NCBI GenBank assembly: GCA_041910055.1
Contig: JAYRRP010000003.1
Span: 45,973-109,972, forward strand
Direction: 5' to 3'
From: Candidatus Saccharimonadales bacterium
Lineage (GTDB): Bacteria; Patescibacteriota; Saccharimonadia; Saccharimonadales; JAYRRP01
Length of the DNA: 64,000 nucleotides
The notes beneath the pieces were generated by a model. The model was not told the DNA's origin. It ran no database searches and saw nothing but the letters and a program-made list of their open reading frames with translations. The first letter of the stretch is position 1; each line of letters begins with the position of its first letter. The position numbers were made by a program, and so were the translations under genes. This document shows positions 5,286 through 52,480 of this stretch, one piece after another.

Positions 5286-5294
5286 TGTTAAGAT
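5286..5294 (+). promoter_or_regulatory. Extended -10 (TGTTAAGAT), 6 nt upstream of ATG 5301 (leaderless candidate)
   Basis: TGT-TAAGAT-AAGAAA-ATG, with no SD. Confidence 0.4.
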
Positions 5295-5300
5295 AAGAAA

Positions 5301-6137
5301 ATGAGACGTACTGTCCGTACGCAATTGTTGCCAATTGCCCTCACCGTCATTATCTTTTTTTGCCTATGCATATTGCTATGGCTGGAAATCCATTTATTAA
5401 ATAAGTTCACGGCAACGGATATTGAGATACATCTCCGAATCGGTGCCATTCTTGTGGGACTCACTATTTATTTAAAAACATCAATTGATTTTGCTATTTA
5501 TATTGGTCGACTTATGGACAAAAATCCAGGCACCCGAGGCCGTATTGCTATCGAACTCGGTACTGCCCTCGGAAACGCTGCAGGCACCATGATCATTTTG
5601 GCAGTTTGGACATTCTTTAAAGAAATCCGCTGGTTATTGGCGATTATGATATTAATCGCCGCTCTCGTTCTGTTGCGGTTAGCAGAGGAAGGCCTGGAGC
5701 ATGTCAACTCCTCTGAAAAACGCTACTCCCGTCAATTTTACAGATTTGCAGATAAGTTTCATATCGCATTAACCAGGTTCAACCGCGTTTTTGAACCATT
5801 TTTACGACGAATTGTCCCCTCCACAAAAGTAAGTAGCCAACGCGCTATGCAGTTTTTACCGCTTTTATTACTTAGCTTTAGCGTACCGTTTATTCTGGGA
5901 CTTGATGACTTTGCAGGATACGTTCCGCTCTTTAATATTGTCAACGTCTTTGGATTTTCAGTCGGCGTATTCTTAGGCCACATGATATTGAATATGCTGC
6001 TCTACCTTTCACCCCGCCACACTATCGCTGTCGTGAAGAATTCAGTAATATCACTACTTGGCAGTGTTGCCTTTGTCGGATTATCGGCGTGGGGGTTCAT
6101 TGAAGTGGTAAAACTGCTCTTCCTCCACCATAGCTAA
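5301..6137 (+). CDS. Polytopic membrane protein, unknown function
   Basis: 278-aa ORF with multiple hydrophobic helices across its length. Confidence 0.7.
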   Translation: MRRTVRTQLLPIALTVIIFFCLCILLWLEIHLLNKFTATDIEIHLRIGAILVGLTIYLKTSIDFAIYIGRLMDKNPGTRGRIAIELGTALGNAAGTMIILAVWTFFKEIRWLLAIMILIAALVLLRLAEEGLEHVNSSEKRYSRQFYRFADKFHIALTRFNRVFEPFLRRIVPSTKVSSQRAMQFLPLLLLSFSVPFILGLDDFAGYVPLFNIVNVFGFSVGVFLGHMILNMLLYLSPRHTIAVVKNSVISLLGSVAFVGLSAWGFIEVVKLLFLHHS

Positions 6138-6150
6138 CCCTCATAAGTCA

Positions 6151-6159
6151 TGGTATAAT
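6151..6159 (+). promoter_or_regulatory. Extended -10 promoter (TGGTATAAT) of tRNA-His
   Basis: Lies 20 nt upstream of the tRNA and is followed by the CACCCCTGTT discriminator motif. Confidence 0.5.
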
Positions 6160-6179
6160 CACCCCTGTTGAAATTACAT

Positions 6180-6257
6180 GGCGAACGTAGCTCAGTTGGT
6201 TAGAGCGTCGGGTTGTGGTCCCGAAGGCCGTGGGTTCGAGCCCCATCGTTCGCCCCA
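6180..6257 (+). tRNA. tRNA-His (anticodon GUG) with genome-encoded G-1
   Basis: An extra 5' G pairs opposite discriminator C. Acceptor GCGAACG/CGTTCGC, anticodon loop TTGTGGT, T arm GTGGG-TTCGAGC-CCCAT, encoded CCA. Confidence 0.92.
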
Positions 6258-6265
6258 TTAAAAGT

Positions 6266-6294
6266 CCTGAGTTTCCGCTCGGGTTTTTTATTTT
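6266..6294 (+). terminator. Rho-independent terminator after tRNA-His
   Basis: CCTGAG-TTTCCG-CTCGGG hairpin (one G-U pair) followed by TTTTTTATTTT. Confidence 0.65.
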
Positions 6295-6351
6295 GTAAGT
6301 CATGACTCACCCTACTGATGACTCCTCCCTAGAGGCGAAAGAGCAGTTTTT

Positions 6352-6360
6352 TGTTATAAT
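6352..6360 (+). promoter_or_regulatory. Extended -10 (TGTTATAAT), 6 nt upstream of GTG 6367 (leaderless candidate)
   Basis: TGT-TATAAT-AAACAT-GTG. The ATG at 6365 is out of frame and hits TGA immediately. Confidence 0.4.
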
Positions 6361-6366
6361 AAACAT

Positions 6367-8262
6367 GTGAAATTGAGGCGGAATTTGCTGCGCCTATGGC
6401 GCTTTTTTAAACATTATCGTCGACTAGGTTTGGTAATAATATCCATCCTCGTTGCTTTGCCACTTGACTTGCTTGGTTATGACAAGGCTGCTCACATCAT
6501 TCTTATAGTGAGTGCCAGTTTGAATCTTATACCACTCGTCTGGGGCATGCTGCAGGATTTACGTTCTGGACAGTACGGAGTGGATATCCTGGCTGCGACT
6601 GCTATTGCTACCTCGTTAATAATGCGTGAATACTGGGCGGGCATTGTCATCGTATTGATGCTTACGGGAGGCGAGAGCCTGGAGGATTACGCCCAAGGTC
6701 GGGCCAAAACTGAACTCAATGCCTTGCTTGCTCGGAGCCCGAAACAAGCCCATATTCTAAGGGGTCGTAAGACTATTGATGTGCCGGTGGACAAAGTTCA
6801 AGTAGGAGACAAATTACTGATAAAACCAGGTGAAGTGGTGCCGGTAGATGCCACTATACTGGACGGCACCAGTAGTATTGATGAGTCCAGCCTCACCGGC
6901 GAAAGCCTACCGGTAGCAAAAAAAGCGGGAGAAGAAGTGCTAAGTGGAAGTGTAACAATCGATGGCGTCTTAACCGTCCGGGCTCTCCATGCCGCCGAAG
7001 ATAGCCAATTCGAACAAATTATTAAACTGGTGAAAGCGGCAGCTTCCAGCAAGTCGCCCATGGTACGCCTGGCTGACCGTTACAGCATTCCCTTCACCAT
7101 TATCTCTTTTAGTATTGCGATTGCGGCCTGGGTGATAAGTGGCGAGTCAATTCGCTTTCTGCAAGTCCTGGTAGTAGCCACCCCTTGCCCGCTTATATTA
7201 GGAGCGCCAATTGCCCTTATATCAGGTATGAGTCGCGCAGCAAAACATGGAATCATTCTGAAATCTGGCGCGGCACTAGAGCGTTTAGCGGCAGCACGAA
7301 CGATGGGGTTTGATAAAACCGGTACGCTTACTGTTGGTAAGCCAAAAGTTGGAAAAATTAAGACCTTCAATAGTTTCAAGAGTAGCGACGTTCTAAGCTT
7401 AGCGGCGGCCCTCGAGCAAAATTCTACCCACATACTAGCTCGAGCTATTGTTGACTCGGCCAGACAAACCAACATAAAAATCCCGAAGGCAAAACATGTG
7501 CAGGAATTTGCCGGACATGGTCTTCAGGCACGAATTAAAGGCCAGGAGATACTCGTAGGTAGGAGTAGTTTTCTGCAAGAACGGAATGTTGCACTAACGG
7601 ATACAAGTAGCCAGGTACAACAGACTGCTGCTTTCGTGGCAGTCGATGGCAAACTGGCAGGGATTATTAGTTTTGAAGATGAGATCCGGCCAGAAACTGC
7701 ATCAACGTTACGACGCCTTACTGAGCTTGGCATACGGCATTTCTTAATGGTGACGGGGGACAATAAAGCGACTGCCCAGGCAATCGCCAAAAAACTTGGT
7801 ATTCAACAAGTAGTAGCGGAAGCCTTGCCGGCAGATAAGATCCAGGCAATTGAAACTGTTGAGACAAAGCCTGTGGGATTTGTCGGCGACGGTGTCAATG
7901 ACGCACCAGTGTTAGCAACCGCTGATGTTGGTGTGGCATTAGGCGCCCGTGGGTCAACTGCTGCCAGTGAATCTGCCGACGTTGTCATTATGCTTGACGA
8001 CGTATCCTACGTCGCGATTGGCGTCGCGATTGCTAAACGGACCATATACATTGCCAAACAAAGCATCCTGATTGGTATCGCTATCAGCATAGGTCTTATG
8101 TTGGTATTCGCAACTGGACGGTTCAAACCAGTCTACGGTGCCTTGTTGCAAGAAGTTGTCGATATAATCGTTATATTTAACGCACTTCGGGCACACGGTT
8201 CGTGGCGCAAAGATAAACCAAAACTTAGCTCAGCAATTGCAGTGAAGACAGAGCCGCGATAA
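6367..8262 (+). CDS. Heavy-metal-translocating P1B-type ATPase, no N-terminal metal-binding domain
   Basis: Motifs DKTGTLT, TGES, MVTGDN and GDGVNDAP. The TM metal motif reads ATPCPL (TPCP) rather than CPC. No CxxC domain is present. Confidence 0.9.
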   Translation: MKLRRNLLRLWRFFKHYRRLGLVIISILVALPLDLLGYDKAAHIILIVSASLNLIPLVWGMLQDLRSGQYGVDILAATAIATSLIMREYWAGIVIVLMLTGGESLEDYAQGRAKTELNALLARSPKQAHILRGRKTIDVPVDKVQVGDKLLIKPGEVVPVDATILDGTSSIDESSLTGESLPVAKKAGEEVLSGSVTIDGVLTVRALHAAEDSQFEQIIKLVKAAASSKSPMVRLADRYSIPFTIISFSIAIAAWVISGESIRFLQVLVVATPCPLILGAPIALISGMSRAAKHGIILKSGAALERLAAARTMGFDKTGTLTVGKPKVGKIKTFNSFKSSDVLSLAAALEQNSTHILARAIVDSARQTNIKIPKAKHVQEFAGHGLQARIKGQEILVGRSSFLQERNVALTDTSSQVQQTAAFVAVDGKLAGIISFEDEIRPETASTLRRLTELGIRHFLMVTGDNKATAQAIAKKLGIQQVVAEALPADKIQAIETVETKPVGFVGDGVNDAPVLATADVGVALGARGSTAASESADVVIMLDDVSYVAIGVAIAKRTIYIAKQSILIGIAISIGLMLVFATGRFKPVYGALLQEVVDIIVIFNALRAHGSWRKDKPKLSSAIAVKTEPR

Positions 8263-8952: not shown

Positions 8953-8961
8953 TGATACAAT
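8953..8961 (+). promoter_or_regulatory. Extended -10 (TGATACAAT), 7 nt upstream of ATG 8969 (leaderless candidate)
   Basis: TGA-TACAAT-ATCTATT-ATG, with no SD. Confidence 0.35.
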
Positions 8962-8968
8962 ATCTATT

Positions 8969-9343
8969 ATGCTTACTGCCATTTCGCTATTCCGCTGGTG
9001 GTATGGTTCTGGTTGGCTTTGGTGTATCAATCAAGGCAAAAACCAGATCAGCGGATTGGTAGATCAATTCTCAGTATTCACCTTATTGAGAACCTTAGGC
9101 GCGCCCTGGAAACAAATTATCAGCCGCCCAACCCAACAAACTGGATTGGACACAAAGTTCCGGGCTGTTATTGACAACATGGTGTCACGCATCGTTGGCT
9201 TTGGAGTGCGCAGTATTGTGCTCATCGCTGCTGGCCTGCTTATTTTATTTTGGACAATTGTGAGTGGGGTGACAATCCTGGCATGGCCATTCATACCGCT
9301 ATCTCCATTGGCTTTACTCCTCGCATCGGTGGGAGTGTTATAG
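8969..9343 (+). CDS. Small membrane protein, stop overlaps the start of the Clp-like gene
   Basis: 124-aa ORF with a C-terminal pair of hydrophobic helices. The TAG stop (9341-9343) shares its G with the downstream GTG. Confidence 0.55.
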   Translation: MLTAISLFRWWYGSGWLWCINQGKNQISGLVDQFSVFTLLRTLGAPWKQIISRPTQQTGLDTKFRAVIDNMVSRIVGFGVRSIVLIAAGLLILFWTIVSGVTILAWPFIPLSPLALLLASVGVL

Positions 9344-11775
9344 TGCAAGTCGAATTTGACATAAATAACCCAAGGGTTAGGAAAGCCCGTTTAGGTGCAA
9401 GGCTCAGTAAACCAATGCGTCTTGCCTTTCTCAAGTTTACAGTTGCCTTGTTGCTAGTCGGCATGATCTTTGTCGTCATTACTGGTCATAAGTTCGGCTA
9501 TCTCCTTGGCATACCAGCAATACCATTACTTATGGTGTGGGTATGGTACAAAGGAGAGTTGCAGGCTCTGCCTCCCACCTTTCAACCAAACGCGACAGTC
9601 ATCAAATTGCATGAGGCACTTGATGCGAGAGTTGTCGGACGATTGAAGACCAGTCAACCTTCTCCGTATGACATATGGAAAGCCGTCAATGGGATGTGGC
9701 GGCAACAGTTTTTCTCCGTACGGTTCGGCATTGGTACGGATATTTTCGAACAATCTTTGAGCCGCGACCCTACGCACACACCAGTAATTATCGAGCAAGC
9801 CGTTCACTTCGCCGAAATCGAGCAGCAATCCGGCATCAGTGGCTCCGCACTCACAGTTGCCTTGCTCTTTAGTATCCAAGGATATGAGTCTTACTTGCAA
9901 CAATTGCAACTTGAGCCTGACGATATTGTCGCCGGGCTAAGATGGCAACAACGTATAGTGGCCATACTTGGTTACTTGGCTGAGCGACACAGTGCAGGCG
10001 GCATCGCACGGGATTGGACTGCAGGCTATACCCCACTATTGAACCAAGTTGGGCATAATGTGAGCCAAGAAGTACAACTCAACAAAGGGTTGCTTCTCCA
10101 TGATACCGAGAGCCATCAGCAGACTATCCAGCAGCTGGTCGGTTTCCTGAAGCAAGGTTCACGTAATAACGTCGTGCTTGTCGGTGATGTGGGGGTTGGC
10201 AAAACAACCGTTGTAAAAGCTTTTGCGCGCAATCTCTTATTTGATAGGGATGTCCCTGAGGAAATCAGATATGCCCAAGTATTCTCGCTGGATGCGGCGG
10301 TCATACTCGCTAACACCAAAGGCAGAGCAGCGCTTGAAGATATCGTCTTGCGTATTCTCAATGAAACTTACCATGCAAAAAATATCATCCTCTTCTTAGA
10401 CGACGCTCAGCTATTCCTAGAGGAAGGCACTGGTTCCGCCGATTTGAGTAACCTGCTCTTGCCAGTTATGCAGGCTGGTAATCTGCGGATTGTATTATCA
10501 ATGACCCCGCAACAATGGCAGCATCTTTCCGCCCACAATTCGGCATTGGCGGGATTGCTGAACGCAGTTATGGTCCAACCGCCTACCCAGGAAAATATTA
10601 TGAATATCATGGAAGACCAGGTGCTCTTAGTTGAGTACCATCATAAAGTAACTTTCATGTATCAAGCCATCCAGGAAGCGTACCGTCTGGCTGACCGCTA
10701 TATGTCCGACACCGCTTTTCCGGGTAAAGGTATCCGTTTGCTGGAAACGGCAGTCAACAATGCAGCAGGAAGCTTAGTCACTGCTGAGTCAGTACAAAAA
10801 AGCATCGAGAGTTCACTGGGAGTCAAGGTCTCTAAAGCCACCCACACCGAGAAACAACAGTTGCTGCATCTGGAAGACGAACTGCATCAACGCATGATCA
10901 ATCAATCCCGTGCGGTACAAGTGGTGTCTGACGCACTGCGCCGTTCACGTAGCGGTGTGGGCAACCCAAACCGGCCAGTCGGCACCTTCTTATTCCTAGG
11001 ACCAACTGGTGTCGGCAAAACAGAACTTACAAAGGCACTGGCCGATGCGTACTTTGGCGGTAAAGAGCATATGGTCCGTGTTGATATGAACGAATACGTG
11101 CAAAGCAGTGACGTAGAACGATTGCTTGCCAGCAGTGCTGCAGAAAACACCAACAGCTTCTTGAGCCAGATGAAGCGAGACCCCTTCAGCGTGGTCTTGT
11201 TTGATGAAATTGAGAAGGCCCATCCCGATATCGTGAATACCCTTCTACAGCTTATAGATGAAGGTAGGATTCGTGACAGCGATAACCGTGAAGTCTCCTT
11301 CCGCGACGCTATTATTATTGCTACTTCAAACGCCGGAGCAAATGAAATCCGCCAACGTATTGAGGCTGGCCAGAACCTAGAGACTTTCGAGCAGGAATTT
11401 ATAGACCAGCTCGTAGCTACAAATCAATTCAAGCCAGAGTTTCTGAACCGCTTTGACGAAATCGTCTTGTTCAGACCCCTTAATAAAACCGAGCTACTCC
11501 AAGTAGTTGAATTGCTTATTCAAGAAGTAAATGTAACCCTTAACCGTCAAAAAGTCCGGGTAGAACTTACAGATGCTGCCAAACAATGGATAGTCGATAA
11601 TGGTTATGATGCGCGGCTCGGTGCCCGACCGATGCGCCGAATGGTACAGCGATCGGTTGAGAATATTGTTGCCAAACGCTTGCTGCAAACCGATTCAGCA
11701 GCCGGTAATGTCTTTACGCTGGATGTCGCCGAACTCGCCGCGGAACATAGCGCATCATCAAAACCAACCTCCTAA
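9343..11775 (+). CDS. Membrane-anchored two-ring AAA+ Clp/Hsp100-family ATPase (ClpA/B/C-like, no M-domain)
   Basis: Two N-terminal TM helices and a Clp_N-like repeat region. D1 Walker A is GDVGVGKTT, with Walker B FLDDAQ. D2 Walker A is GPTGVGKTE, with Walker B VVLFDEIEKAH and ARPMRR. Start set to GTG 9343, but the exact start is uncertain; the 9250 start of the ORF track lies inside the upstream gene. Confidence 0.85.
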   Translation: MQVEFDINNPRVRKARLGARLSKPMRLAFLKFTVALLLVGMIFVVITGHKFGYLLGIPAIPLLMVWVWYKGELQALPPTFQPNATVIKLHEALDARVVGRLKTSQPSPYDIWKAVNGMWRQQFFSVRFGIGTDIFEQSLSRDPTHTPVIIEQAVHFAEIEQQSGISGSALTVALLFSIQGYESYLQQLQLEPDDIVAGLRWQQRIVAILGYLAERHSAGGIARDWTAGYTPLLNQVGHNVSQEVQLNKGLLLHDTESHQQTIQQLVGFLKQGSRNNVVLVGDVGVGKTTVVKAFARNLLFDRDVPEEIRYAQVFSLDAAVILANTKGRAALEDIVLRILNETYHAKNIILFLDDAQLFLEEGTGSADLSNLLLPVMQAGNLRIVLSMTPQQWQHLSAHNSALAGLLNAVMVQPPTQENIMNIMEDQVLLVEYHHKVTFMYQAIQEAYRLADRYMSDTAFPGKGIRLLETAVNNAAGSLVTAESVQKSIESSLGVKVSKATHTEKQQLLHLEDELHQRMINQSRAVQVVSDALRRSRSGVGNPNRPVGTFLFLGPTGVGKTELTKALADAYFGGKEHMVRVDMNEYVQSSDVERLLASSAAENTNSFLSQMKRDPFSVVLFDEIEKAHPDIVNTLLQLIDEGRIRDSDNREVSFRDAIIIATSNAGANEIRQRIEAGQNLETFEQEFIDQLVATNQFKPEFLNRFDEIVLFRPLNKTELLQVVELLIQEVNVTLNRQKVRVELTDAAKQWIVDNGYDARLGARPMRRMVQRSVENIVAKRLLQTDSAAGNVFTLDVAELAAEHSASSKPTS

Positions 11776-11822
11776 AGTCTCAGATATCATTGAGTCAAAT
11801 CTGGCACGCAGTTACATAAAAA

Positions 11823-11849
11823 CTCCAGGCTGAGGCCTGGGGTTTTATT
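11823..11849 (+). terminator. Rho-independent terminator after the Clp-like gene
   Basis: CTCCAGGC-TGAG-GCCTGGGG followed by TTTTATT. Confidence 0.7.
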
Positions 11850-11864
11850 GTAATATTAAGATTA

Positions 11865-12464
11865 ATGAAAGACCTTTTACTGCTTCTATCAGCGCTTATT
11901 ACAATTGGCGGTGTAGTACCTTATATTCTTGACATTCTTAAGGGCAAAACCAAGCCTAATATTGTCTCTTGGATTACCTGGACGCTTCTTACAGGATTGG
12001 CAACCGCCGCATTGATAGCAGCACATGAATACCGAGCAGCTTTCTTCACGGGAGCTGCAGTGATTGAGACGGCATCGGTTGTAATACTTGGGCTAAGACA
12101 TGGGTACGTTAAGTACACTCAATTTGATGTAATATGCCAAATTGCAGCAGTCGTTGGACTAATCCTGTGGCAGATATTTAACACACCATTCATAGCAGTC
12201 TTCGCTGCCGTAACAATAGATCTCATAGGCGCATTACCTACCTTCAGACACTCCTGGCAAAAACCATTTGAAGAAACTTGGACTACCTATGCTTTATCGG
12301 GTATTGGAGCGTTGGTAGCATTGTTCGCCCTTGTGTCTTACAACTGGACAAGTCTTTCATACCCCGTGTATATAGTTCTTGTAAACATACTTATTACTAC
12401 TACTATCCTCATTGCGAGAAAAGTTAGCTTACAGAAAAACAGTACCCATTCTCGTACAAAATGA
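11865..12464 (+). CDS. Polytopic membrane protein (about 6-7 TM), unknown function
   Basis: 199-aa hydrophobic ORF placed between two terminators. Confidence 0.65.
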   Translation: MKDLLLLLSALITIGGVVPYILDILKGKTKPNIVSWITWTLLTGLATAALIAAHEYRAAFFTGAAVIETASVVILGLRHGYVKYTQFDVICQIAAVVGLILWQIFNTPFIAVFAAVTIDLIGALPTFRHSWQKPFEETWTTYALSGIGALVALFALVSYNWTSLSYPVYIVLVNILITTTILIARKVSLQKNSTHSRTK

Positions 12465-12493
12465 AAAATAGCAACTAAAAGATTGCTGTTTTT
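12464..12493. terminator. Bidirectional A/T-flanked hairpin terminator
   Basis: AAAAATAGCAA-CTAAAAGA-TTGCTGTTTTT. It sits between the 11865 gene and the displaced tRNA-Pro 3' fragment. Confidence 0.6.
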
Positions 12494-12496
12494 CAT

Positions 12497-12514
12497 TGGT
12501 CGGGGTGAGAGGAC
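12497..12514. repeat. att direct repeat, distal copy (TGGTCGGGGTGAGAGGAC)
   Basis: Perfect 18/18 match to 19901-19918, which is the 3' end of tRNA-Pro. Confidence 0.8.
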
Positions 12515-12576
12515 AGCGCTCGGGCTCACGCGCCGTGCTAACCTCCGATGTCGTCGGTTCAATTCTGGTACCATCA

Positions 12577-12612
12577 TGCAAAAAGCTCAGGCTTTGGTCT
12601 GAGCTTTTTGCA
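12577..12612. terminator. 14-bp-stem bidirectional hairpin at the left edge of the element
   Basis: TGCAAAAAGCTCAG-GCTTTGGT-CTGAGCTTTTTGCA. The core is GCTCAG/CTGAGC, flanked by an A-run and a T-run. Confidence 0.55.
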
Positions 12613-12754
12613 TGGTCGGGGGTAACAGATTTTTCTCAAACTTTAGATTTGATAATCCGCCAACGCCAAAACCTTAACATTATGGTAGAACGTCTGACTG
12701 CTGTTAGCAAATATGACGATAAGAAATTATCACTAATAAGTCTATAATGGTGGT

Positions 12755-12961
12755 ATGGGAAATCTGTATGAACAGACACAAACTCTGCAATATATTAAGG
12801 ATATGATTGTTCTAGACCCAGTGGGTAAGCCCTCAGATAGTACTCCATTGGAAGAAAGGCTAAAAAACTACCCCAAAGATCTAAATCCAATAGACAGTCC
12901 TGCGACAGTATTCTGGCACGTAAAAGACAAGCCCCCTAAGGATAAAAGAAGCAAAAAATAA
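12755..12961 (+). CDS. Hypothetical small protein (68 aa), Lys-rich C-terminus
   Basis: ORF preceded by TATAAT (12743-12748) at N6 from the ATG. No recognisable family. Confidence 0.4.
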   Translation: MGNLYEQTQTLQYIKDMIVLDPVGKPSDSTPLEERLKNYPKDLNPIDSPATVFWHVKDKPPKDKRSKK

Positions 12962-13057
12962 CTTAGCGTAAGTTAGCTCAAACTTGTACTAGTGTGGACC
13001 GAAAACAAGACTTGCCTTGTTGCAGAGTTATAAACTATTATTAGTGTACAAACGTTA

Positions 13058-13108
13058 GTGCTTATGCTTGTACCGCTTAAAAGCACCAGAGTGTACAAGC
13101 AAGAGCAC
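13058..13108. repeat. 16-bp imperfect inverted repeat with 19-nt loop
   Basis: GTGCTTATGCTTGTAC ... GTACAAGCAAGAGCAC, with 14 Watson-Crick pairs, one G-U and one mismatch. Intergenic inside the element. Confidence 0.5.
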
Positions 13109-13129
13109 CGAAAAGAAACGACTCCCTAA

Positions 13130-13444
13130 CTATTCACGAGTAGAGGGAGTCTTTTTATATGCGTAAACGAACTTTGTTGTGTGGTCGCCACCACCAGGAC
13201 CGCCGTCAGTGCCAAGTCGTTCAATGAAGAACAGTTCAACATTACGGGCTGCCGTTTGGTTGCCAGCATCACGGTAAATCCAGTAGCCGTTGTCTTTATC
13301 AACGTTGTGGTCAACAAAGAGCCGTTGTTCTGGTGCCGATGCAATGCCAACATACCAATCAGCATAACGGGGATGTCGGAGCTTTATGTGCTCGTCTATA
13401 GCAACCGCAGTCTGCTGTTCAACAGGTGTCAGTGTAATTTGCAT
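13130..13444 (-). CDS. Small protein with weak GIY-YIG-like signature
   Basis: 104 aa. WYVGIASAPEQRLFVDHNV resembles the YIG...RL..H segment of GIY-YIG/T5orf172-type domains. The assignment is tentative. It is divergent from the repressor gene. Confidence 0.55.
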   Translation of the reverse strand: MQITLTPVEQQTAVAIDEHIKLRHPRYADWYVGIASAPEQRLFVDHNVDKDNGYWIYRDAGNQTAARNVELFFIERLGTDGGPGGGDHTTKFVYAYKKTPSTRE

Positions 13445-13568
13445 ATTTGCCTTTCTGATTTTTTACCTTATACCCCCGTACGACCTCTGCTCTCTGGTTT
13501 GCAGTTCGGGTTACTACAAAATATATAGGATTTTAACAGATGAGTCAAGCCAATCAAGACGATTAAGA

Positions 13569-13596
13569 TTGACAACATCATCAAAACGACTATAAT
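13569..13596 (+). promoter_or_regulatory. Near-consensus sigma70 promoter TTGACA-N16-TATAAT of the repressor gene
   Basis: Hexamers read directly, followed by the AGGGGTGA SD and ATG 13607. Confidence 0.65.
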
Positions 13597-13606
13597 TAGG
13601 GGTGAT

Positions 13607-14239
13607 ATGCACGAGCTACAGAGTAAAATACTTGAGCTAGCCGAGAATAACCAGCTTGATGGGATGAACCTTAGGGACATTGGTGATTCTGTTGGTGAAA
13701 ACCACCTACAGAAGGTCAAACATCACCTTAACCAACTACTAGCAAAGAACTTCATTGGCATTGACTCAAATGGTAACTACAGGGTTATTAAAAGTGGTCA
13801 AAATCAGCTTAGGAGCGGGGGCATTATTAGTATTCCTATCTATGGGGCTGCTAATTGTGGTCCCGCCGAAATCTTTGCAGAAGATAACTTAGAGGGTTAC
13901 CTTGAAGTCTCCGAGAAACTAGTAAAATACAGCCAAAGCCTAATAGCACTCAGAGCCGTTGGCGACTCTATGAACCGATCAAACCTTTCAGGCAATGCTA
14001 TTGACGCTGGAGACTACCTTATTATTGACACTGATGACAAGAGACCAAAAGACGGAGACTATGTACTGTCCATATTCAACAATATGGCGAATATAAAAAG
14101 ATTCTTTTTTGATAAGATTACAGGCACAGTTACTTTGGTATCTGAATCAAATAGAGCCATCCCACCAATAGTTGCCGACCCAGATGACGATTATATGGTG
14201 GCTGGTAAAGTGCTAAGAGTAGTTAAATCATACTCTTAG
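13607..14239 (+). CDS. LexA/CI-like repressor: N-terminal winged-helix domain plus C-terminal S24 self-cleaving peptidase
   Basis: S24 Ser motif AVGDSMN, Lys motif ANIKRF, and a candidate cleavage region GAANCGP between the domains. Confidence 0.85.
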   Translation: MHELQSKILELAENNQLDGMNLRDIGDSVGENHLQKVKHHLNQLLAKNFIGIDSNGNYRVIKSGQNQLRSGGIISIPIYGAANCGPAEIFAEDNLEGYLEVSEKLVKYSQSLIALRAVGDSMNRSNLSGNAIDAGDYLIIDTDDKRPKDGDYVLSIFNNMANIKRFFFDKITGTVTLVSESNRAIPPIVADPDDDYMVAGKVLRVVKSYS

Positions 14240-14240
14240 A

Positions 14241-14489
14241 CTAAATGTCTTGCTTTCTTTCCTTGTACATATCGTAGATTAACTTTGCTAGAGCTTCCGC
14301 ATCTTCTTTTCGTTTATCCCTGATCACAAGGTCGTCTAATTGTTTCTTGGTTATTGGCTGGTAGACAGTTTTTACCTGCAATAACAGCATCGTAAGTTTT
14401 TTACGTGCAATCTGATAGTCCAGCTCTTTCCCAAACTTAGATTTGTATAAGTCTTGAAACTTTTTTACGTCTTTTTCGGTTATCTCCAT
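14241..14489 (-). CDS. Hypothetical small helical protein (82 aa), Lys/Glu-rich
   Basis: Its stop lies 1 nt from the repressor stop (convergent). It is divergent from dcm. No family recognised. Confidence 0.5.
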   Translation of the reverse strand: MEITEKDVKKFQDLYKSKFGKELDYQIARKKLTMLLLQVKTVYQPITKKQLDDLVIRDKRKEDAEALAKLIYDMYKERKQDI

Positions 14490-14587
14490 CCGTCAATTCT
14501 GCACTAAATGTACCTATGTTGTAAAATGCTAATGCTGTCTTTTTTACGTCATATTCGTCCGTAAGAATACGCTATACTATAAGCACT

Positions 14588-16212: not shown

Positions 16213-16333
16213 TAGTAAAAAGTATACTTCAACACCTTATATATAAAAATCATCTTGTCAAAAACCGTTAAGAAAATGCAGATTGACACAGGTTTACTAT
16301 TATGGAAATATAATTGAATTAACAGAGGTCATT

Positions 16334-16342
16334 TGCTATAAT
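16334..16342 (+). promoter_or_regulatory. Extended -10 (TGCTATAAT) upstream of the MgsA_C-like gene
   Basis: TGnTATAAT lies about 37 nt upstream of ATG 16379, which has a GGGGG SD. Confidence 0.4.
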
Positions 16343-16378
16343 ATAACTACATTCTTTAACAATTTGGGGGTAAAAATT

Positions 16379-17898: not shown

Positions 17899-17915
17899 GC
17901 TAAATGCCCAAACAA

Positions 17916-25235: not shown

Positions 25236-25308
25236 GTGCGTATCATAGTAACTCCATTTTTATAAATTACAAAACATTTTTTGTATTAGCACAAGCTTTA
25301 TACTCCCC

Positions 25309-25317: not shown

Positions 25318-25323
25318 AAAAAC

Positions 25324-28332: not shown

Positions 28333-28338
28333 AAATCC

Positions 28339-40573: not shown

Positions 40574-40578
40574 AATCT

Positions 40579-45227: not shown

Positions 45228-45257
45228 AATAATGCCGTCCAATGGCATTATTTTTTT
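45228..45257 (+). terminator. Rho-independent terminator after tRNA-Lys
   Basis: AATAATGCC-GTCCAAT-GGCATTATT followed by TTTTT, ending at the GNAT start codon. Confidence 0.65.
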
Positions 45258-45764
45258 ATGTCTGAGATGCGTCTAGCCACTTTAGAAGAGACCAAAAGTC
45301 TTCAGGGTTTGTTTATTGAATCGACAAGACACGCTAATCAGGTAGGACATATTGATAGACCGAATCAATTCGAAGAGGAATATTTCATGCCATATATCGA
45401 GGCAAGTGAGTTGCACTGCTTCGATGTTGACGATCAACTTGCCGGAGTCGTGAATCTGGCCGAGGAAGACTGTCCTCCTATCGTTTGGCAAGAAACTGAC
45501 GCACAATACCTATATATTGGGAAATTGGCGACCGCCGATATTGTGAGAGGCAAACACTTTTTCCAACAAACAATGCTACCGGATATTGAGAAGGAAGCTA
45601 TACAAAGAGGCAAACTTGGATTGAGGCTAAGTTGTTTAGGTGATAATCCAAAATTAATAAATTTTTATAACTCAGTCGGATTCGACTTGGTTGGAATGGC
45701 TGGAGTATTTTCAAATTTTTATCAAAAGCACGTTGAAGTTACTAAATTTCAGCGCGAAATCTGA
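45258..45764 (+). CDS. GNAT-family N-acetyltransferase
   Basis: The pattern YIGKLATADIVRGKHFFQQTM...GLRLSC...NPKLINFYNSVGF resembles the acetyl-CoA-binding core. Start set at MSEMRLA, because the 45183 start overlaps tRNA-Lys. Confidence 0.72.
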   Translation: MSEMRLATLEETKSLQGLFIESTRHANQVGHIDRPNQFEEEYFMPYIEASELHCFDVDDQLAGVVNLAEEDCPPIVWQETDAQYLYIGKLATADIVRGKHFFQQTMLPDIEKEAIQRGKLGLRLSCLGDNPKLINFYNSVGFDLVGMAGVFSNFYQKHVEVTKFQREI

Positions 45765-45823: not shown

Positions 45824-46195
45824 TTAACCCTTTAGCATATCAATTAGAAGTATCAAGAGACCGATTAACAGAATAGAACCAAACACTCTAAACGTATATT
45901 TAGTAAATTTCTCGGGGAAAAGTGTGTCACCTACATAACCTTTTGGATCGCCATAATGCTTGGCTAAAGCGGTTAAGGGGCACTTCATGCCGCTGCCAAA
46001 GAAAACTATACCTTCGACCGTTAGCAATCCTAATGACACATAAAGCAGACAGTTATAATTCTTTGCAATTGCAGCGTACACAATATAAAAAATCGCCGCA
46101 ACCATAACTAGATAGATAAAAGTATGAACGGTTTTAACAAGCATCAGCTTCTTATGATTAGGCGCAACGTTGTCCATAGTTTTACTATACGCCAC
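45824..46195 (-). CDS. Small membrane protein (about 4 TM), unknown function
   Basis: 123-aa hydrophobic ORF. Confidence 0.6.
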   Translation of the reverse strand: MAYSKTMDNVAPNHKKLMLVKTVHTFIYLVMVAAIFYIVYAAIAKNYNCLLYVSLGLLTVEGIVFFGSGMKCPLTALAKHYGDPKGYVGDTLFPEKFTKYTFRVFGSILLIGLLILLIDMLKG

Positions 46196-46791: not shown

Positions 46792-46861
46792 TATAGTTTT
46801 GCAGGTAACAGGTATTGTCGCTACTTGATTATTACTAGAGATTATTGTACTATATTCCTCT

Positions 46862-47719
46862 ATGTTAGAGATTCCCAACCTTACCGAGCTGAGATTAGAT
46901 AAATCTGGGTACGACACTAGGTATGAAATTGACGTTGCCCACCCGTTGCATAACGACCCCTTAGTGGATCCCCGAGAGCCTGAATTTGGATTCGAGGATG
47001 CGAGTAGCTATTACTCAAAGCCAAATGCCATGACAGGCGAAACTTTACCTGGTGTACCTGACGCACCATTATTACGCCTAGATGTTGCCAAAAGAATAGT
47101 TCAGGCCGAGCATTACTTACGAACTGATCCAGAAGTCCGTGAAGTTCTGGGAACGCCAGCCCGTTTACGAATAGATGACGCGTTGCGTCCATACCAGGTA
47201 CAAAAATTTGCTTTTGAAGTAGCTTGGCCAAAGGTGATAAAAGCTAAGAATCCTGATATGACTGATGAGGAAGTAGCAAAACAAGTCCCTAATTACTGTG
47301 CCCGACCTAACGCAAACCTTACGCCAACTCCTCACTTAACCGGTGGCGCAGTAGATGTAGCCTTGGTAAACCTACAGACTAATGAGGCTTTCGATCGTGG
47401 TCATAAAGGCGGTGCAATTAAAGGTACGGCATATCCTGACTTCCACGAAGGCTACCATTTAACAGAGGGCCAAAGCGACATAGAGAATTCACCCGAACAA
47501 GCAGACGTAGCACCTAAAAATAAAGAAATAGTCATGGCACGCAGAATTTTATACTACGCGATGACTGAAGTTGCAGGTCTGTATGTGAATCCTCAAGAAA
47601 TCTGGCATTATGGCAAAGGCGATCCTTTGTCCGAGTATGTATCGGGTAGCAATCACCCATATTATGGCATTGCCGAACTTCCTGAATGGTACACCGATGA
47701 AATGCGGCGTTTACATTAG
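46862..47719 (+). CDS. M15-family zinc peptidase, D-Ala-D-Ala dipeptidase (VanX/DdpX-like)
   Basis: PHLTGGAVDVAL (SxHxxGxAxD-type) and EIWHYG motifs. Confidence 0.75.
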   Translation: MLEIPNLTELRLDKSGYDTRYEIDVAHPLHNDPLVDPREPEFGFEDASSYYSKPNAMTGETLPGVPDAPLLRLDVAKRIVQAEHYLRTDPEVREVLGTPARLRIDDALRPYQVQKFAFEVAWPKVIKAKNPDMTDEEVAKQVPNYCARPNANLTPTPHLTGGAVDVALVNLQTNEAFDRGHKGGAIKGTAYPDFHEGYHLTEGQSDIENSPEQADVAPKNKEIVMARRILYYAMTEVAGLYVNPQEIWHYGKGDPLSEYVSGSNHPYYGIAELPEWYTDEMRRLH

Positions 47720-48150: not shown

Positions 48151-48159
48151 TGATATTAT
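48151..48159 (+). promoter_or_regulatory. Extended -10 (TGATATTAT), 6 nt upstream of ATG 48166 (leaderless candidate)
   Basis: TGA-TATTAT-AAAAAC-ATG, with no SD. Confidence 0.4.
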
Positions 48160-48165
48160 AAAAAC

Positions 48166-48792
48166 ATGAAGAAAGTTGGAGTTTTAGGATCAGGCTTAGT
48201 CGGTCAAACTTTAGCCAATGGGCTCAAGGATGTGGGCTATGAGGTAAAAATCGGGTGCCGGACTGCTAGCAAAGTAGATAATTGGGAAGGTCCTGTCGTT
48301 ACGTTTGCAGAATGTGCAGGCTGGGCAGAGATAATTGTCCTGGCAGTCAAAGGAACGGCCGCCGAAGAAGTAGTTACCTCTGTAAAAAATGAGCTGGCGG
48401 GAAAAACAGTTATCGACACCACAAACCCTATCGCCGCTCAACCACCGGATGATGGAGTACTTCAGTATTTCACGGACATAAATGAATCGCTCATGGAACG
48501 TTTGCAGCAAAAAAGTCCGGCCGCACGATTCGTGAAAGCTTTTAACAGCGTAGGGAATGCCCTCATGGTGAAACCACAGCTTGCCAGTGGACCACCGACC
48601 ATGTTCATATGCGGTGATGATCAAAACGCTAAAAGAGAAGTGACAAAAATACTAGATCAGTTGGGCTGGGAAAGTACGGACATGGGCACAGCCAAATCGG
48701 CTCGAGCACTTGAACCATTATGCATACTGTGGTGTCTGCCCGGATTCTTACGCAATGATTGGCAGCATGCTTTTAAACTGCTCACGAAATAA
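48166..48792 (+). CDS. NADP-binding oxidoreductase (NADPH-dependent F420 reductase / ProC-like Rossmann family)
   Basis: MKKVGVLGSGLVGQTLANGL dinucleotide-binding motif and the expected length. Confidence 0.75.
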   Translation: MKKVGVLGSGLVGQTLANGLKDVGYEVKIGCRTASKVDNWEGPVVTFAECAGWAEIIVLAVKGTAAEEVVTSVKNELAGKTVIDTTNPIAAQPPDDGVLQYFTDINESLMERLQQKSPAARFVKAFNSVGNALMVKPQLASGPPTMFICGDDQNAKREVTKILDQLGWESTDMGTAKSARALEPLCILWCLPGFLRNDWQHAFKLLTK

Positions 48793-48867: not shown

Positions 48868-49212
48868 ATGGAAAAAAGAAATCCCGTAATGGTTGCGGTT
48901 TTGGCTTTTATAACACTCGGCATTTACGGCATTTACTGGTTCGTAAAAACTAAGGGCGAGATGAACCAACGAGGAGCCCAAATACCTACCGCTTGGTTTA
49001 TTATCATACCGTTTGTTAATATCTGGTGGTATTGGAAATACTGCGAAGGAGTAGAAAAGGTCACCAAAGCCCAGCTTTCTACCGTTCTTTCCTTTATCCT
49101 ACTCTATCTTACCGGAGTTATTGGTGTAGCAATCTTGCAAAATTATTTCAACAAAGTCGATACACCCGCGGCACCAGCTCCAGCTGCGCCTGTCGCCCCA
49201 GCTGCTCAGTGA
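48868..49212 (+). CDS. DUF4234-like membrane protein with Ala/Pro-rich tail
   Basis: ITLGIYGIYWFVKTKGEMN signature. Confidence 0.65.
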   Translation: MEKRNPVMVAVLAFITLGIYGIYWFVKTKGEMNQRGAQIPTAWFIIIPFVNIWWYWKYCEGVEKVTKAQLSTVLSFILLYLTGVIGVAILQNYFNKVDTPAAPAPAAPVAPAAQ

Positions 49213-49706
49213 TGTTTGCCATGGTGCTTACCACGCTTGCGGTGGTCTGACCACAACAACAGAAAGCTCACGAGCGCACCGCCTGCAAAGATTAACGGTT
49301 GGTACTGATTGATCATTGTCCATGATTTATCAGATTCAGCTAAGGATTTTGCTCCGTATGGCAAAAGGGGAACTACCAAAACAGCTACTGCCAAACCGCA
49401 CATAGCAGCCGGAATTATATTAATAATCATCTTGGCGCCGCTGACATGTTGCCTAAGCAACAAGGCTGTAATAACTGCTGGGAGCAAGATTATGCCTATT
49501 TGGACGTAATTTTGCGATGAAGGACCGAGTTTGGCCATCAGGTCATTTAATGGTCCATTTGTGCTGTTGCTGACATATTTAGCCACTACACTACCCGTGC
49601 AAAGAGCTAAAAATACAACAGCAGCGTTACTGCGCAACCAAAAGAGGAGTACTACCGGGATTCCAACCAGTAACGCGAGCAATACGATTCCTGTCATCCA
49701 GCCCAT
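49206..49706 (-). CDS. Polytopic membrane protein, His/Lys-rich C-terminus
   Basis: 166-aa hydrophobic ORF. Confidence 0.6.
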   Translation of the reverse strand: MGWMTGIVLLALLVGIPVVLLFWLRSNAAVVFLALCTGSVVAKYVSNSTNGPLNDLMAKLGPSSQNYVQIGIILLPAVITALLLRQHVSGAKMIINIIPAAMCGLAVAVLVVPLLPYGAKSLAESDKSWTMINQYQPLIFAGGALVSFLLLWSDHRKRGKHHGKHH

Positions 49707-49721
49707 AATAGCATGAGCGTC

Positions 49722-50210: not shown

Positions 50211-51054
50211 TCACTTTTTCCGCGACATTCCGGCCGGTAACTTTCTCAACTGACGATCCAGGGCTCGCATTGACTTCAAGCACTAAAGGCCCACGTCTAG
50301 AACGAATCATATCAACACCGCAAATTGACAGTCCTATTGCCCGGGCAGCTTTTAATGCAGTGCGTCTTTCCTCGTCAGTCAACTTAATAGCAGAGCCAGT
50401 GCCTCCTTGGTGAATATTAGAGCGAAAATCATCATCCAAGCTCTGTCGTTTCATACTAGCAACAACTTTACCGCCAACCACGTGTGCACGAATATCACTA
50501 CCCTCAGACTCTGCAATAAATTCTTGTACTAGAAAGTTCACACCTTCCACATAGAAAGCCTGCATTACAGCTTGGGCAGCCTTTTTGGTTTCCGCCAAGA
50601 CCACCCCCTTCCCATGCGTGCCACGGGCAACTTTGATGATCAAAGGTGTTCCACCAGCTTGCTCAATGACATTATCCAGATCGTCTGTTGCACGAGCAAA
50701 CACAGTCTTTGGAATACCAACACCTGAACGAGCCAACAACTGTGTGCTACGCAATTTGTCTCGTGAGCGCACAATGGCAATCGAGCTTGCAGTACTAAAG
50801 ACACCCATCATCTCAAATTGCCGCACTATTGAGGAACCATATTTGGTAAGATTTGTAGCAATTCGAGGGATAATGACATCTATATCGCCTAACTCTTCAC
50901 CTTCATAGTGGACTTGTGGCCGGCTTTGTTCAATCGTCACATAACATTTGGCATAGTTAATCACCCGCACATCATGTCCGCGAGCTTCAGCCTCCTGACG
51001 CAGCCTTTTAGTAGAGTAGTTACCTGGTCCTTGTGAGAGTATCGCGATCTTCAT
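50152..51054 (-). CDS. rimK: ATP-grasp ligase RimK (alpha-L-glutamate ligase)
   Basis: MKIAILSQGPGNYSTKRLRQEAEARGH closely parallels the E. coli RimK N-terminus, and ATP-grasp motifs run throughout. Confidence 0.9.
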   Translation of the reverse strand: MKIAILSQGPGNYSTKRLRQEAEARGHDVRVINYAKCYVTIEQSRPQVHYEGEELGDIDVIIPRIATNLTKYGSSIVRQFEMMGVFSTASSIAIVRSRDKLRSTQLLARSGVGIPKTVFARATDDLDNVIEQAGGTPLIIKVARGTHGKGVVLAETKKAAQAVMQAFYVEGVNFLVQEFIAESEGSDIRAHVVGGKVVASMKRQSLDDDFRSNIHQGGTGSAIKLTDEERRTALKAARAIGLSICGVDMIRSRRGPLVLEVNASPGSSVEKVTGRNVAEKVIEYIEQNARGKRRKDRVGA

Positions 51055-51056
51055 GT

Positions 51057-51500
51057 TTATGCTCTCCTGGCGTAACGATACTGTGTGCCAATGCGAACGT
51101 CAACCAAAAATCCATGACGGCGCAGAAATTGCCGACCAATTAACACCTCTTTTTTCATATTGGTACGATCACTTAGACTGATAGATACCATGTAATTGAC
51201 TTCCTCAATTTGAATCGTGGTGCGAATAACATAACGCTCTTCAAGCAACCCATTTGAAGAACGTACACGCTTTTTCCTGTAGTGTACAGTCTCCGCACTT
51301 CGCGATTCATCACCCAAAAGATGGAACTGCAATCTTTTGACACCTTCATTATCCGAAACCTCACGCATACCGGTAGCATGCAGGGCACCGGAATATGCTC
51401 CTGTGTCAATTTTAGCCACTACATCTCTTAGCTGGAACTCAGGGAAACTAACCTTTGCGAATGATCCAATAATCGGACGCTCTTTCTTTACCACAAACAA
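51057..51500 (-). CDS. Retropepsin-like aspartic protease (RimK-associated, PF05618-type)
   Basis: AKIDTGAYSGALHA motif. TTG start. Ends 2 nt before rimK. Confidence 0.78.
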   Translation of the reverse strand: MFVVKKERPIIGSFAKVSFPEFQLRDVVAKIDTGAYSGALHATGMREVSDNEGVKRLQFHLLGDESRSAETVHYRKKRVRSSNGLLEERYVIRTTIQIEEVNYMVSISLSDRTNMKKEVLIGRQFLRRHGFLVDVRIGTQYRYARRA

Positions 51501-51555
51501 CCGCCATTTAATTTAAAAGTGAGCCTACCCTATCATATTTTTATACTTTTTTCAA

Positions 51556-51672
51556 CTACGGGGCAGCGTGTCTTACGCGAAGATAGACAAATACAATGGC
51601 AGCCAAGAGGAGAGCAAGAAGCGTGAGAATCAAGGGTATAAATCCGTTTTGTCCCAGACGTTTTAATTTCAT
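51556..51672 (-). CDS. Possible 38-aa single-TM micro-protein upstream of the protease-rimK pair
   Basis: Manual translation gives MKLKRLGQNGFIPLILTLLALLLAAIVFVYLRVRHAAP. It is not in the ORF track, and there is no clear SD. Confidence 0.3.
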   Translation of the reverse strand: MKLKRLGQNGFIPLILTLLALLLAAIVFVYLRVRHAAP

Positions 51673-51712
51673 ATGTACTTATTGTAAAAGAAGAGCAAAT
51701 AAACACAAGCAG

Positions 51713-51742
51713 TTGACTAACATGGATGTTTTATGCTATAAT
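51713..51742 (+). promoter_or_regulatory. Promoter TTGACT-N18-(TGC)TATAAT, 6 nt upstream of ATG 51749
   Basis: Hexamers read directly, with an extended -10 TG. ATG 51749 sits at the expected transcription start. Confidence 0.55.
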
Positions 51743-51748
51743 ATGCAA

Positions 51749-52480
51749 ATGAATGAAGGTTTTGCCGCTGAACGTGATTTGCATCAGCGTGCTCGTCAAG
51801 CTTCCCGTGAACGTGTAGCGAATTCTACTGAAGACTTACGAGCTTTGACTACAGCCAACGCAGGTCTAAAAGCTGAGGTGCAATATCATCAGACAGTACT
51901 TGATTGGGTAAGTGCTGAGAAAGATTATTGGCGGGACCAAGCTACCCGTGATGCACTCACTGGGCTTCTCAACAAACGCGGTCTTGATGAACAGCTATCC
52001 CAAAAACTTGAACAAGCAACCGCTGAGGATAACATTGGACTGTTTTATATAGATTTGACCAATTTTAAACGGGTTAACGATGAACAAGGCCACCAAACAG
52101 GTGATGAAGTCTTGGTAGGCGTTGCAAATATCCTAGAGCATAATTTCCGCAAAGAAGACAAACTTTCTTATGTTGGCCGGACAGGTGGTGATGAGTTTAT
52201 TACACTCTGTGATCTGAAACCTCGACATGATGGCAACAATAAACTCACAACTGAAGAAAGAATGGATAGCATCAGAGAGAAGTTGACCCTTGCATTTGAT
52301 GATTTCAGCATAGGAATCATTGAAGGTGAATCCTCTCTAGAATCAATGCAATTTGACGTCTCTATTGGCCAGGCTATCTGGGAACCAGGCATGAACACCG
52401 AACAGTTTATTAAGCTGGCCGAGGAAGACATGTACCTCCATAAAGCCCAGCAGCATCAAGAAAATGGTTCTTATCGTTAA
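51749..52480 (+). CDS. GGDEF-domain diguanylate cyclase with N-terminal coiled coil
   Basis: RDALTGLLNKRG, FKRVNDEQGHQTGD and the intact RTGGDEF motif. Start chosen from the promoter geometry; the upstream part of the ORF-track version (from 51596) overlaps the promoter. Confidence 0.82.
   Translation: MNEGFAAERDLHQRARQASRERVANSTEDLRALTTANAGLKAEVQYHQTVLDWVSAEKDYWRDQATRDALTGLLNKRGLDEQLSQKLEQATAEDNIGLFYIDLTNFKRVNDEQGHQTGDEVLVGVANILEHNFRKEDKLSYVGRTGGDEFITLCDLKPRHDGNNKLTTEERMDSIREKLTLAFDDFSIGIIEGESSLESMQFDVSIGQAIWEPGMNTEQFIKLAEEDMYLHKAQQHQENGSYR

Follow-up and report, generated by a model that had tools for sequence, protein, structure and literature searches.

The stretch of DNA analysed here, called the window, comprises 64,000 nucleotides (nt) from a Candidatus Saccharimonadales genome (assembly GCA_041910055.1, contig JAYRRP010000003.1, positions 45,973 to 109,972), and the feature under study is the way in which its genes begin. 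Many start codons stand a few nt behind a promoter −10 box, commonly of the extended form TGnTAnnnT (the spacer between box and start codon is written N6 for six nt, N7 for seven, and so on); others are preceded by a Shine-Dalgarno (SD) sequence. A first-pass annotation had listed ten such box-spacer-start strings and had taken them for leaderless genes, whose mRNA would lack a 5′ leader. All ten are present in the sequence at the positions and spacings that it gave, as is the TTGACT −35 hexamer that it noted ahead of the start at 51749:

3879-3918, plus strand: TTGCAA-17-GATAAT-N8-ATG, start of a conserved Saccharibacteria-specific gene (3916-5244).
5286-5303, plus strand: TGTTAAGAT-N6-ATG, start of the gene for a 278-amino-acid (aa) membrane-anchored protein (5301-6137), at the first start codon of the open reading frame (ORF).
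6352-6369, plus strand: TGTTATAAT-N6-GTG, proposed start of a P-type ATPase gene (6367-8262).
8953-8971, plus strand: TGATACAAT-N7-ATG, start of the gene for a 124-aa membrane protein (8969-9343).
12743-12757, plus strand: TATAAT-N6-ATG, start of a 68-aa ORF (12755-12961), unvalidated and listed on the basis of its motif.
14575-14590, plus strand: TACTAT-N7-ATG (also TATACT-N9), start of a C5 DNA methylase gene (14588-15640).
25309-25326, plus strand: TGCTATACT-N6-ATG, start of a PRC-barrel (YrrD/YlmC-like) gene (25324-25851).
28324-28341, plus strand: TGTTAAAAT-N6-ATG, start of a prepilin-like gene with an N_methyl motif (28339-28908), at the first start codon of the ORF.
48151-48168, plus strand: TGATATTAT-N6-ATG, start of an NADP oxidoreductase gene (48166-48792).
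51713-51751, plus strand: TTGACT-18-TGCTATAAT-N6-ATG, start of a GGDEF gene (start 51749, 243 aa).

The list was nonetheless incomplete, and seven equally good sites can be added to it:

16210-16226, minus strand: TATACT-N8 or TACTTT-N6 before ATG, start of a gene at 15637-16212.
25233-25247, minus strand: TATGAT-N6-ATG, start of a gene for an LTD-domain surface protein (23874-25235).
40571-40586, minus strand: TACAAT-N7-ATG, start of a 196-aa, ruvA-like gene (39983-40573), which we take to be ruvA from its position beside a 342-aa gene taken as ruvB.
46175-46189, minus strand: TATAGT-N6-ATG, start of a gene at 45824-46177, for which the automatic gene call is identical (117 aa).
46846-46864, plus strand: TACTAT-N8 or TATATT-N5 before ATG, start of a gene at 46862-47719.
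49695-49713, minus strand: TGCTATTAT-N7-ATG, start of a gene at 49206-49697.
60320-60337, minus strand: TGCTATAAA-N6-ATG, start of a guanylate kinase gene (start 60322).

The window holds 69 complete genes, with intergenic DNA making up 7.5% of its length. Sixteen genes have a strong leaderless-type start (all the sites above except 3916) and five a weaker one (3916, 11865, 14489, 21311 and 44967); in three more, starting at 13607, 28957 and 32633, a box at N10-12 implies a leader of 3-6 nt. Strong SDs precede 21 genes and weak SDs seven, and the 17 with neither signal are mostly overlapping or tightly coupled operon-internal genes. Eighteen of the 21 leaderless-type sites stand at promoter-bearing positions, and the type accounts for 18 of the 42 genes having room for a promoter of their own. 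Start codons at the strong sites comprise 15 ATG and one GTG, and TG occupies −15/−14 in nine of these 16. Regulatory, membrane and conserved hypothetical genes make up most of the leaderless type; those with a strong SD include chaperone and recombination genes and the gene for the major pilin.

For statistical purposes the start of each of the 69 genes was set by rule as the first ATG, GTG or TTG of a complete ORF judged to be coding. Under this rule TGnTAnnnT lies at N6 or N7 of the start codon in six genes, against an expectation of 0.3 from control offsets or 0.45 from the intergenic density of the motif (Poisson P = 8e-7), an excess of 13- to 20-fold. The shorter motif TAnnnT lies at N6/7 in 14 genes, against 3.6-4.3 expected (P = 2.5e-5). 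An annotation-free histogram, built from each motif followed at distance d by an ATG or GTG that opens at least 100 codons, gave six cases at N6, three at N7 and about 0.8 at each other spacing. A count of motif-to-start spacing against controls had been proposed with the first-pass list, and it comes out enriched at N6/7 both in the window and in related genomes.

The related genomes were represented by 80 loci (1.31 Mb) that carry relatives of the P-type ATPase (50-83% identity), all of them from metagenome-assembled genomes of Saccharibacteria/Saccharimonadales, in which we counted extended −10 boxes that precede a start codon close to the beginning of an ORF 100 or more codons long. There were 63 cases at N6, 46 at N7, 21 at N8 and 23 at N9, over a background of about seven per spacing; 52 of the 80 loci contribute N6/7 cases, and N6-9 is the only peak among the 31-91 spacings examined. 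The identical analysis of 200 kb of E. coli K-12 gave no N6/7 peak. E. coli replaced an earlier control set, which came from a metagenome scan with the GGDEF protein of the window; the scan returned only distant domain-level matches (27-45% identity) and no orthologs of the N-terminus, and the contigs were uninformative as controls, being small, mostly high in G+C and possibly leaderless-rich themselves.

Aligned on the start codon, the N6 set from the related genomes has T at −17 in 53%, T at −15 in 48% and G at −14 in 53% of cases, against a background of about 23-27% for the latter two; positions −35 to −33 show a weak TTG, and −1 a pyrimidine (T in 50%). ATG makes up 87% of its start codons, versus 46% among control candidate starts, and GTG 8%. 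The excess of boxes varies with gene neighbourhood: genes with a divergent upstream neighbour gave 83 and 70 cases versus 37 per spacing, and those with an upstream gap of at least 60 nt gave 42 and 53 versus 24, the excess being weak, though present, where the gap is below 25 nt. Starts without an SD had 166 boxes at N6-9, against about 34 expected, whereas at SD-preceded starts the extended −10 box mostly lies 20-45 nt upstream; the SD 4-mers GGAG, GAGG and AGGA form a peak of their own at spacers of 5-8 nt. This bimodal pattern bears out the earlier proposal of two initiation classes. A 16S rRNA 3′ end, from which the anti-SD could be read, was not present within the fetched loci.

In the window the SD class includes recA, dnaK, grpE and the genes for the major pilin, RNase Y and lepA, as well as most operon-internal genes. 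Its members have a GGAG-type SD 5-8 nt ahead of the start codon, and the promoter, where recognisable, lies 20-45 nt further upstream. Strong SDs had been noted at four genes, the first three of which exemplify the contrasting class, and all four are in place:

28210-28230, minus strand: recA, GGAGG SD, start 28212.
57878-57900, minus strand: dnaK, AAGGAG SD, start 57880.
32000-32099, plus strand: major pilin gene, promoter TTGACT-16-TATAAT, leader of about 63 nt, GGAGGG SD, ATG at 32097.
3317-3611, minus strand: so-called LPXTG gene, a 59-aa ORF (MYGGGVVLGATTTTAAAIVLPNTGSNRALAIAATITLAVGIVVTVTTLARLVAKKAYKG) with an AGGAG SD, an LPNTG motif and its ATG at 3496.

For nine window genes the orthologs retain box, spacer and ATG in the same arrangement, whereas the sequence around them has drifted. 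The ortholog of the 5301 gene in the closest relative, locus L001 (85% aa identity), retains TGTTAAGAT-N6-ATG with an altered spacer (2/2). At 8969, 21 of 22 orthologs, some with as little as 24-40% aa identity, have TACAAT or TATAAT at N6/7 of the ATG; the remaining upstream region is unalignable. The PRC-barrel gene at 25324 has a −10 box at N6-9 in 17 of 18 orthologs; among the 120 matches listed for its product, of more than 3000 found, most are 172-176 aa long and cover 98-99% of its 175 aa. For the 3916 gene, homologs of which span 99-100% of 442 aa, the orthologs have GATAAT-N7 (L120) and TATAAT-N6 (L121), so that all three genomes carry a box (3/3). The 48166 ortholog in L113 carries TGATATGAT-N6-ATG (2/2), although its spacer and N-terminus are not those of the window gene, and a Rossmann motif (MKKVGVLGSG) that runs from residue 2 points to this start. 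At 46862 the 18 nt ahead of the ATG are identical in L113 and the sequence further upstream differs (2/2). TGCTATTAT-N7-ATG at 49697 is conserved in the window, L113 and L116 (3/3), and an upstream in-frame ATG is closed off by a TGA in L113. Guanylate kinase has TG(c/t)TATAAA-N6-ATG in the same three genomes (3/3), with orthologs of 250 and 252 aa.

The ninth of these genes is the GGDEF gene. TTGACT lies 18 nt upstream of TGCTATAAT, the promoter spanning 51713-51742, and the proposed start at 51749 is internal to an ORF open from 51596. Two orthologs have lengths of 243 aa (76% identity) and 234 aa (50% identity), and both L113 and L116 carry the whole unit TTGAC(T/A)-17/18-TG(c/g)TAT(A/T)AT-N6-ATG (3/3), with differing N-terminal residues. 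The earlier claim that the architecture fixes this start at 51749 is thus well supported by ortholog lengths and by the conserved promoter unit.

Protein features bear on several other starts. At 25235 a signal-peptide-like N-terminus (MRVWRRYYRLGFLLPAILLLPVWAGASP) is encoded from the box-adjacent ATG only; 14588 is the sole start codon within the first 80 codons of its ORF and has no SD; and no SD precedes the downstream alternatives in the 5301 and 28339 genes, which for 28339 are 28348 and 28357 (here the automatic call is identical, 189 aa). Taken with the orthologs, these features lend indirect support to the box-adjacent codons as the probable starts at 25324, 48166, 25235, 3916, 51749, 60322 and 49697.

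Two arrangements at these sites may be added. The 25235 and 25324 promoters stand back to back, and the divergent pairs at 25233-25326 and 14487-14590 have spacers of 88 and 98 nt, respectively, each with two back-to-back −10 boxes, every one of which adjoins its own ATG. The 8969 gene and a ClpB-like AAA+ gene share the sequence TAGTG at 9341-9345, where the stop of the former overlaps the GTG start of the latter; with GGAG 7 nt upstream, this suggests that the second gene is translationally coupled to a leaderless first one.

These observations very probably mean that this Saccharibacteria genome has two ways of initiating translation, one leaderless, with an extended −10 box adjoining the AUG, and the other SD-led. 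The leaderless interpretation of the first-pass annotation has the support of all the computational tests to which it could be put. In about a quarter of its genes a −10 box ends 6-7 bases ahead of the start codon, and the corresponding mRNAs most likely start at the AUG. The mechanism would be as follows. An extended −10 promoter of the housekeeping sigma factor (T-R-T-G-n-T-A-n-n-n-T, with little or no −35) would end 6-7 bases ahead of the start codon. The transcription start site (TSS) usually lies 7 bp from the −10 box (PMC12641261), which with an N6 spacer would make the A of the ATG the first base of the mRNA; the transcript would begin there or one base earlier. Such an mRNA would have neither a 5′ leader nor an SD, and the ribosome would have to bind its 5′-terminal AUG directly. 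The box architecture, its statistics and its conservation are observed; from them we infer the mRNA 5′ end and the mode of ribosome binding.

Several observations weigh against this reading, at single sites or in general, and some of them favour one of three other explanations. The boxes might be real promoters with translation beginning at a downstream in-frame codon, behind a short 5′ untranslated region that sometimes holds an SD. The clearest case for this is the P-type ATPase, where a TSS near 6367 would be followed by GAGG (6375-6378) at N6 from a TTG at 6385, 18 nt downstream of the GTG. That TTG aligns with the SD-led starts of most ATPase orthologs, which have a similar extended −10 box (often TGTTATAAT or TGCTATACT) upstream of a 20-30 nt leader with a GGAG-type SD, and starts that align to 6382-6385; GTG is, moreover, rare in the N6 class, yet 6367 is a GTG. 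On the other hand, L001 has TGATATAAT-N6-ATG at the position matching 6367, with ATG instead of GTG, and between it and the TTG the two sequences differ by a 3-nt indel that preserves the frame. GTG 6367 is probably the start, being about twice as likely as TTG 6385; the first-pass statement that it was fixed finds support in the ATG of L001 but was too strong, because the TTG with its GAGG aligns with SD-led ortholog starts. Across about 72 ATPase orthologs, some 17 have a box at N6-9, 41 an SD behind a 20-30 nt leader, and 16 are unclear, which suggests that one gene can switch initiation mode between related genomes and may have done so repeatedly across the family. Exact-sequence look-ups of the ATPase (as 631 aa and as 625 aa) and of the 5301 protein found no record. 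For the class as a whole, translation from downstream codons is improbable: homology or features of the protein call for the upstream start at 25324, 48166, 25235 and 3916, no other start exists within 80 codons at 14588, and the downstream alternatives at 5301 and 28339 have no SD.

Two further explanations dispense with leaderless promoters altogether. TAnnnT could act in translation and not as a promoter, being an A/U-rich, non-SD signal of longer, leadered transcripts like that of the Bacteroidetes 'group B'; its distance from the start equals that expected of an SD, and CPR (candidate phyla radiation) ribosomes are unusual, with a shortened bS1 and, in some lineages, no anti-SD (PMC9297842). 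We consider this very unlikely. The sequence features are specific to sigma factors: TG occupies −15/−14 and T occupies −17, a TTG resembling a −35 stands at the appropriate distance, and a pyrimidine is followed by a purine at the predicted start. At the GGDEF gene TTGAC(T/A)-17/18-TGnTATAAT is conserved in full, and an SD peak coexists in the same genomes. In addition, the excess is concentrated at divergent and long-gap genes and is weak in close packing, whereas group B motifs precede all genes (PMC6028130). The TG, the T at −17, the −35-like TTG and the dependence on position are marks of sigma-70-type DNA recognition and not of an A/U-rich translation enhancer. Finally, AT-rich hexamers might fall near starts by chance in AT-rich intergenic DNA, the effect being inflated by free choice of start codon. 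Raw string counts give this some colour: TGNTANNNT-N6-ATG occurs seven times in the window against 2.96 expected, a marginal excess that 3 of 100 shuffles reach, its N7 form occurs twice against 2.8 expected, and TAnnnT occupies 3% of intergenic positions. Yet seven of these nine matches, comprising the five TGNTANNNT-N6-ATG sites of the first-pass list, the N7 site at 8969 and an extra N7 site at 49697 on the minus strand, coincide exactly with a gene start, six of them at the first start codon of the ORF and the ortholog-confirmed 49697 three codons into it. The significance comes from this coincidence with gene starts, not from the raw number of strings. With the fixed start rule giving a 13- to 20-fold excess of extended boxes (P ~1e-6), and a peak that is confined to N6-9, replicated in 52 of 80 genomes, absent from E. 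coli and kept in orthologs, chance is refuted for the class as a whole, where it has next to no probability; it is possible for the single weak sites 21311, 12755 and 14489.

The remaining difficulties concern the promoters themselves and the assignment of single sites. A two-hexamer promoter scan of 60 kb of the window gave matches no commoner than in shuffles, and at the 9-of-12 two-hexamer threshold a −35 is recognisable at only three claimed sites (51713, 8933 and 3879); scarcity of a consensus −35 16-18 nt upstream is, however, expected of extended −10 promoters. Genes in the window were called, and assigned to classes, partly by hand. The 3916 gene is a weaker case, with GATAAT at N8, and would be leaderless or have a leader of 1-2 nt. 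The 12755 site is likewise weaker: no orthologs were found among the related loci, and the ORF is a candidate by its motif. TACACT-N6-ATG at 21311 was considered as a further case and rejected; the box is not conserved, the orthologs lying mostly directly behind the RNase Y gene without one. A transcriptome study of Nanosynbacter lyticus (TM7x) reportedly lists 188 TSSs. The −10-to-TSS distances of the N. lyticus TSS set are described as unusually variable (PMC12641261).

If leaderless initiation is accepted, public automatic gene calls for the same genome (loci L081 and L119) misplace five of the 16 strong leaderless-type starts, two by truncation and three by extension. The PRC-barrel gene is called from 25444 instead of 25324 (135 aa instead of 175), and the surface protein from 25151 instead of 25235 (425 aa instead of 453), with loss of its signal peptide. 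The extended calls are those for the GGDEF gene (GTG 51623 instead of 51749, 285 aa instead of 243), guanylate kinase (60361 instead of 60322, 262 aa instead of 249) and the 49697 gene (ATG 49706, within the −10 box, 166 aa instead of 163). A systematic bias of this kind in start codons affects predictions of signal peptides, topology and domains, and it matters because CPR proteomes are almost wholly predicted.

Leaderless initiation is a known mechanism, very probably present here in a phylum for which we located no description of it, and the result reveals no new mechanism. A full-text literature search found no account of leaderless genes in Saccharibacteria or the CPR, although earlier tabulation among group C species is possible. 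GeneMarkS-2 recognises a 'group C' of genomes in which the first gene of an operon has a Pribnow box 6-8 nt ahead of its start codon and the other genes have an SD at that same distance of 6-8 nt; leaderless transcripts are predicted for 25-50% of their operons, and the pattern is typical of Actinobacteria (90%) and Deinococcus-Thermus (97%) (PMC6028130). Genomes of this group (M. tuberculosis, M. smegmatis, Corynebacterium, Streptomyces and D. deserti) share with the window the box at 6-8 nt, the SD class and the ATG/GTG starts, and their leaderless share compares with about 18 of 42 promoter-bearing genes here. The window differs in its CPR/Patescibacteria lineage, its low G+C content (45%), the extended −10 (TRTGn) of about half its promoters, and its very compact intergenic regions, with back-to-back leaderless promoters in spacers of 88-98 nt. 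Moreover, group C organisms have the support of differential RNA sequencing and proteogenomics, whereas the present case is known from sequence alone. Archaeal 'group D' genomes likewise have a large share of transcripts that start at the start codon (PMC6028130), but these rely on a TATA box some 26 nt upstream, unlike the −10 box at 6-8 nt seen here.

Sigma-70 promoters of the extended −10 (TGn) type in E. coli and Firmicutes have in common with those of the window the TG at −15/−14, the weak or absent −35 and the T at −17 (TRTG) (PMC12641261). They normally drive leadered mRNAs with an SD, whereas in the window a large subset has its predicted transcription start on the AUG. Isolated leaderless genes of E. 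coli and its phages, such as lambda cI and Tn1721 tetR, whose AUG-initial transcripts are translated without an SD, are rare exceptions in an SD-dominated genome. The 200 kb of E. coli showed no N6/7 peak, whereas leaderless genes would form a major class here. In the CPR, a study of ribosomes found bS1 to be shortened and the anti-SD to be lost only in some Parcubacteria (PMC9297842).

A broader reading can be offered tentatively, at somewhat less than an even chance of being right. Leaderless initiation would be a phylum-wide, major mode in Saccharibacteria and possibly in other CPR, driven by extended −10 promoters and serving about 40% of transcription units. From one and the same promoter, individual genes would switch repeatedly between a leaderless mRNA and one with an SD leader of 20-30 nt, on the model of the P-type ATPase. 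The trait would be one of streamlining, tied to compact intergenic regions and reduced ribosomes with a shortened bS1, and it would be shared, perhaps not by accident, with leaderless-rich actinobacterial hosts. Apart from this broader reading, the result adds to the leaderless-rich bacteria, for the evolution of translation initiation, a probable member from a deep-branching lineage with small ribosomes, with the ATPase as a clean example of alternating modes. Saccharibacteria have become genetically tractable only recently, and for construct design a bare TGnTAnnnT-N6-ATG cassette might serve as a native expression unit; strongly expressed genes use GGAGG leaders. The value of the result lies in CPR annotation, in the design of genetic tools and in comparative data on how translation initiation evolves.

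Other features of the window deserve brief mention. The 59-aa product of the LPXTG gene comprises a complete sortase sorting signal (LPNTG, a hydrophobic stretch and a KK tail) preceded by about 20 residues, with no signal peptide; some 80 nt ahead of its ATG at 3496 stands TTTACA-16-TATAAT (3611-3584), a promoter close to consensus. At 45228-45260 an 11-bp hairpin and T-run immediately follow the tRNA-Lys gene and end 1 nt before an ATG at 45258; the low-scoring ORF that starts there has neither an SD nor a −10 box and adjoins the hairpin and T-run, so that it may not be a gene.

The region from about 11800 to 18000 may be a strain-specific island. The genes tested in it (11865, 12755, 14588 and 16212) have no counterpart in the 80 related loci, and a perfect TTGACA-16-TATAAT promoter lies within it at 13569-13596, as does the C5 DNA methylase gene. 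Near its beginning is a G+C-rich segment with a hairpin (12497-12616), which matches no tRNA or Rfam model; an Rfam search of 12300-13200 at a permissive threshold, aimed at a tRNA or tmRNA remnant, gave only meaningless microRNA matches.

Directly upstream of hrcA, at 59507-59575 on the minus strand, are two tandem inverted repeats resembling CIRCE (controlling inverted repeat of chaperone expression), TAGCACTC-N9-GAGTGCTA and TAGCACTT-N9-AAGTGCTA. A −35 hexamer, TTGACT, lies within the loop of the first repeat, and the second stops 1 nt short of the ATG; this double arrangement is conserved in L113 and L116.

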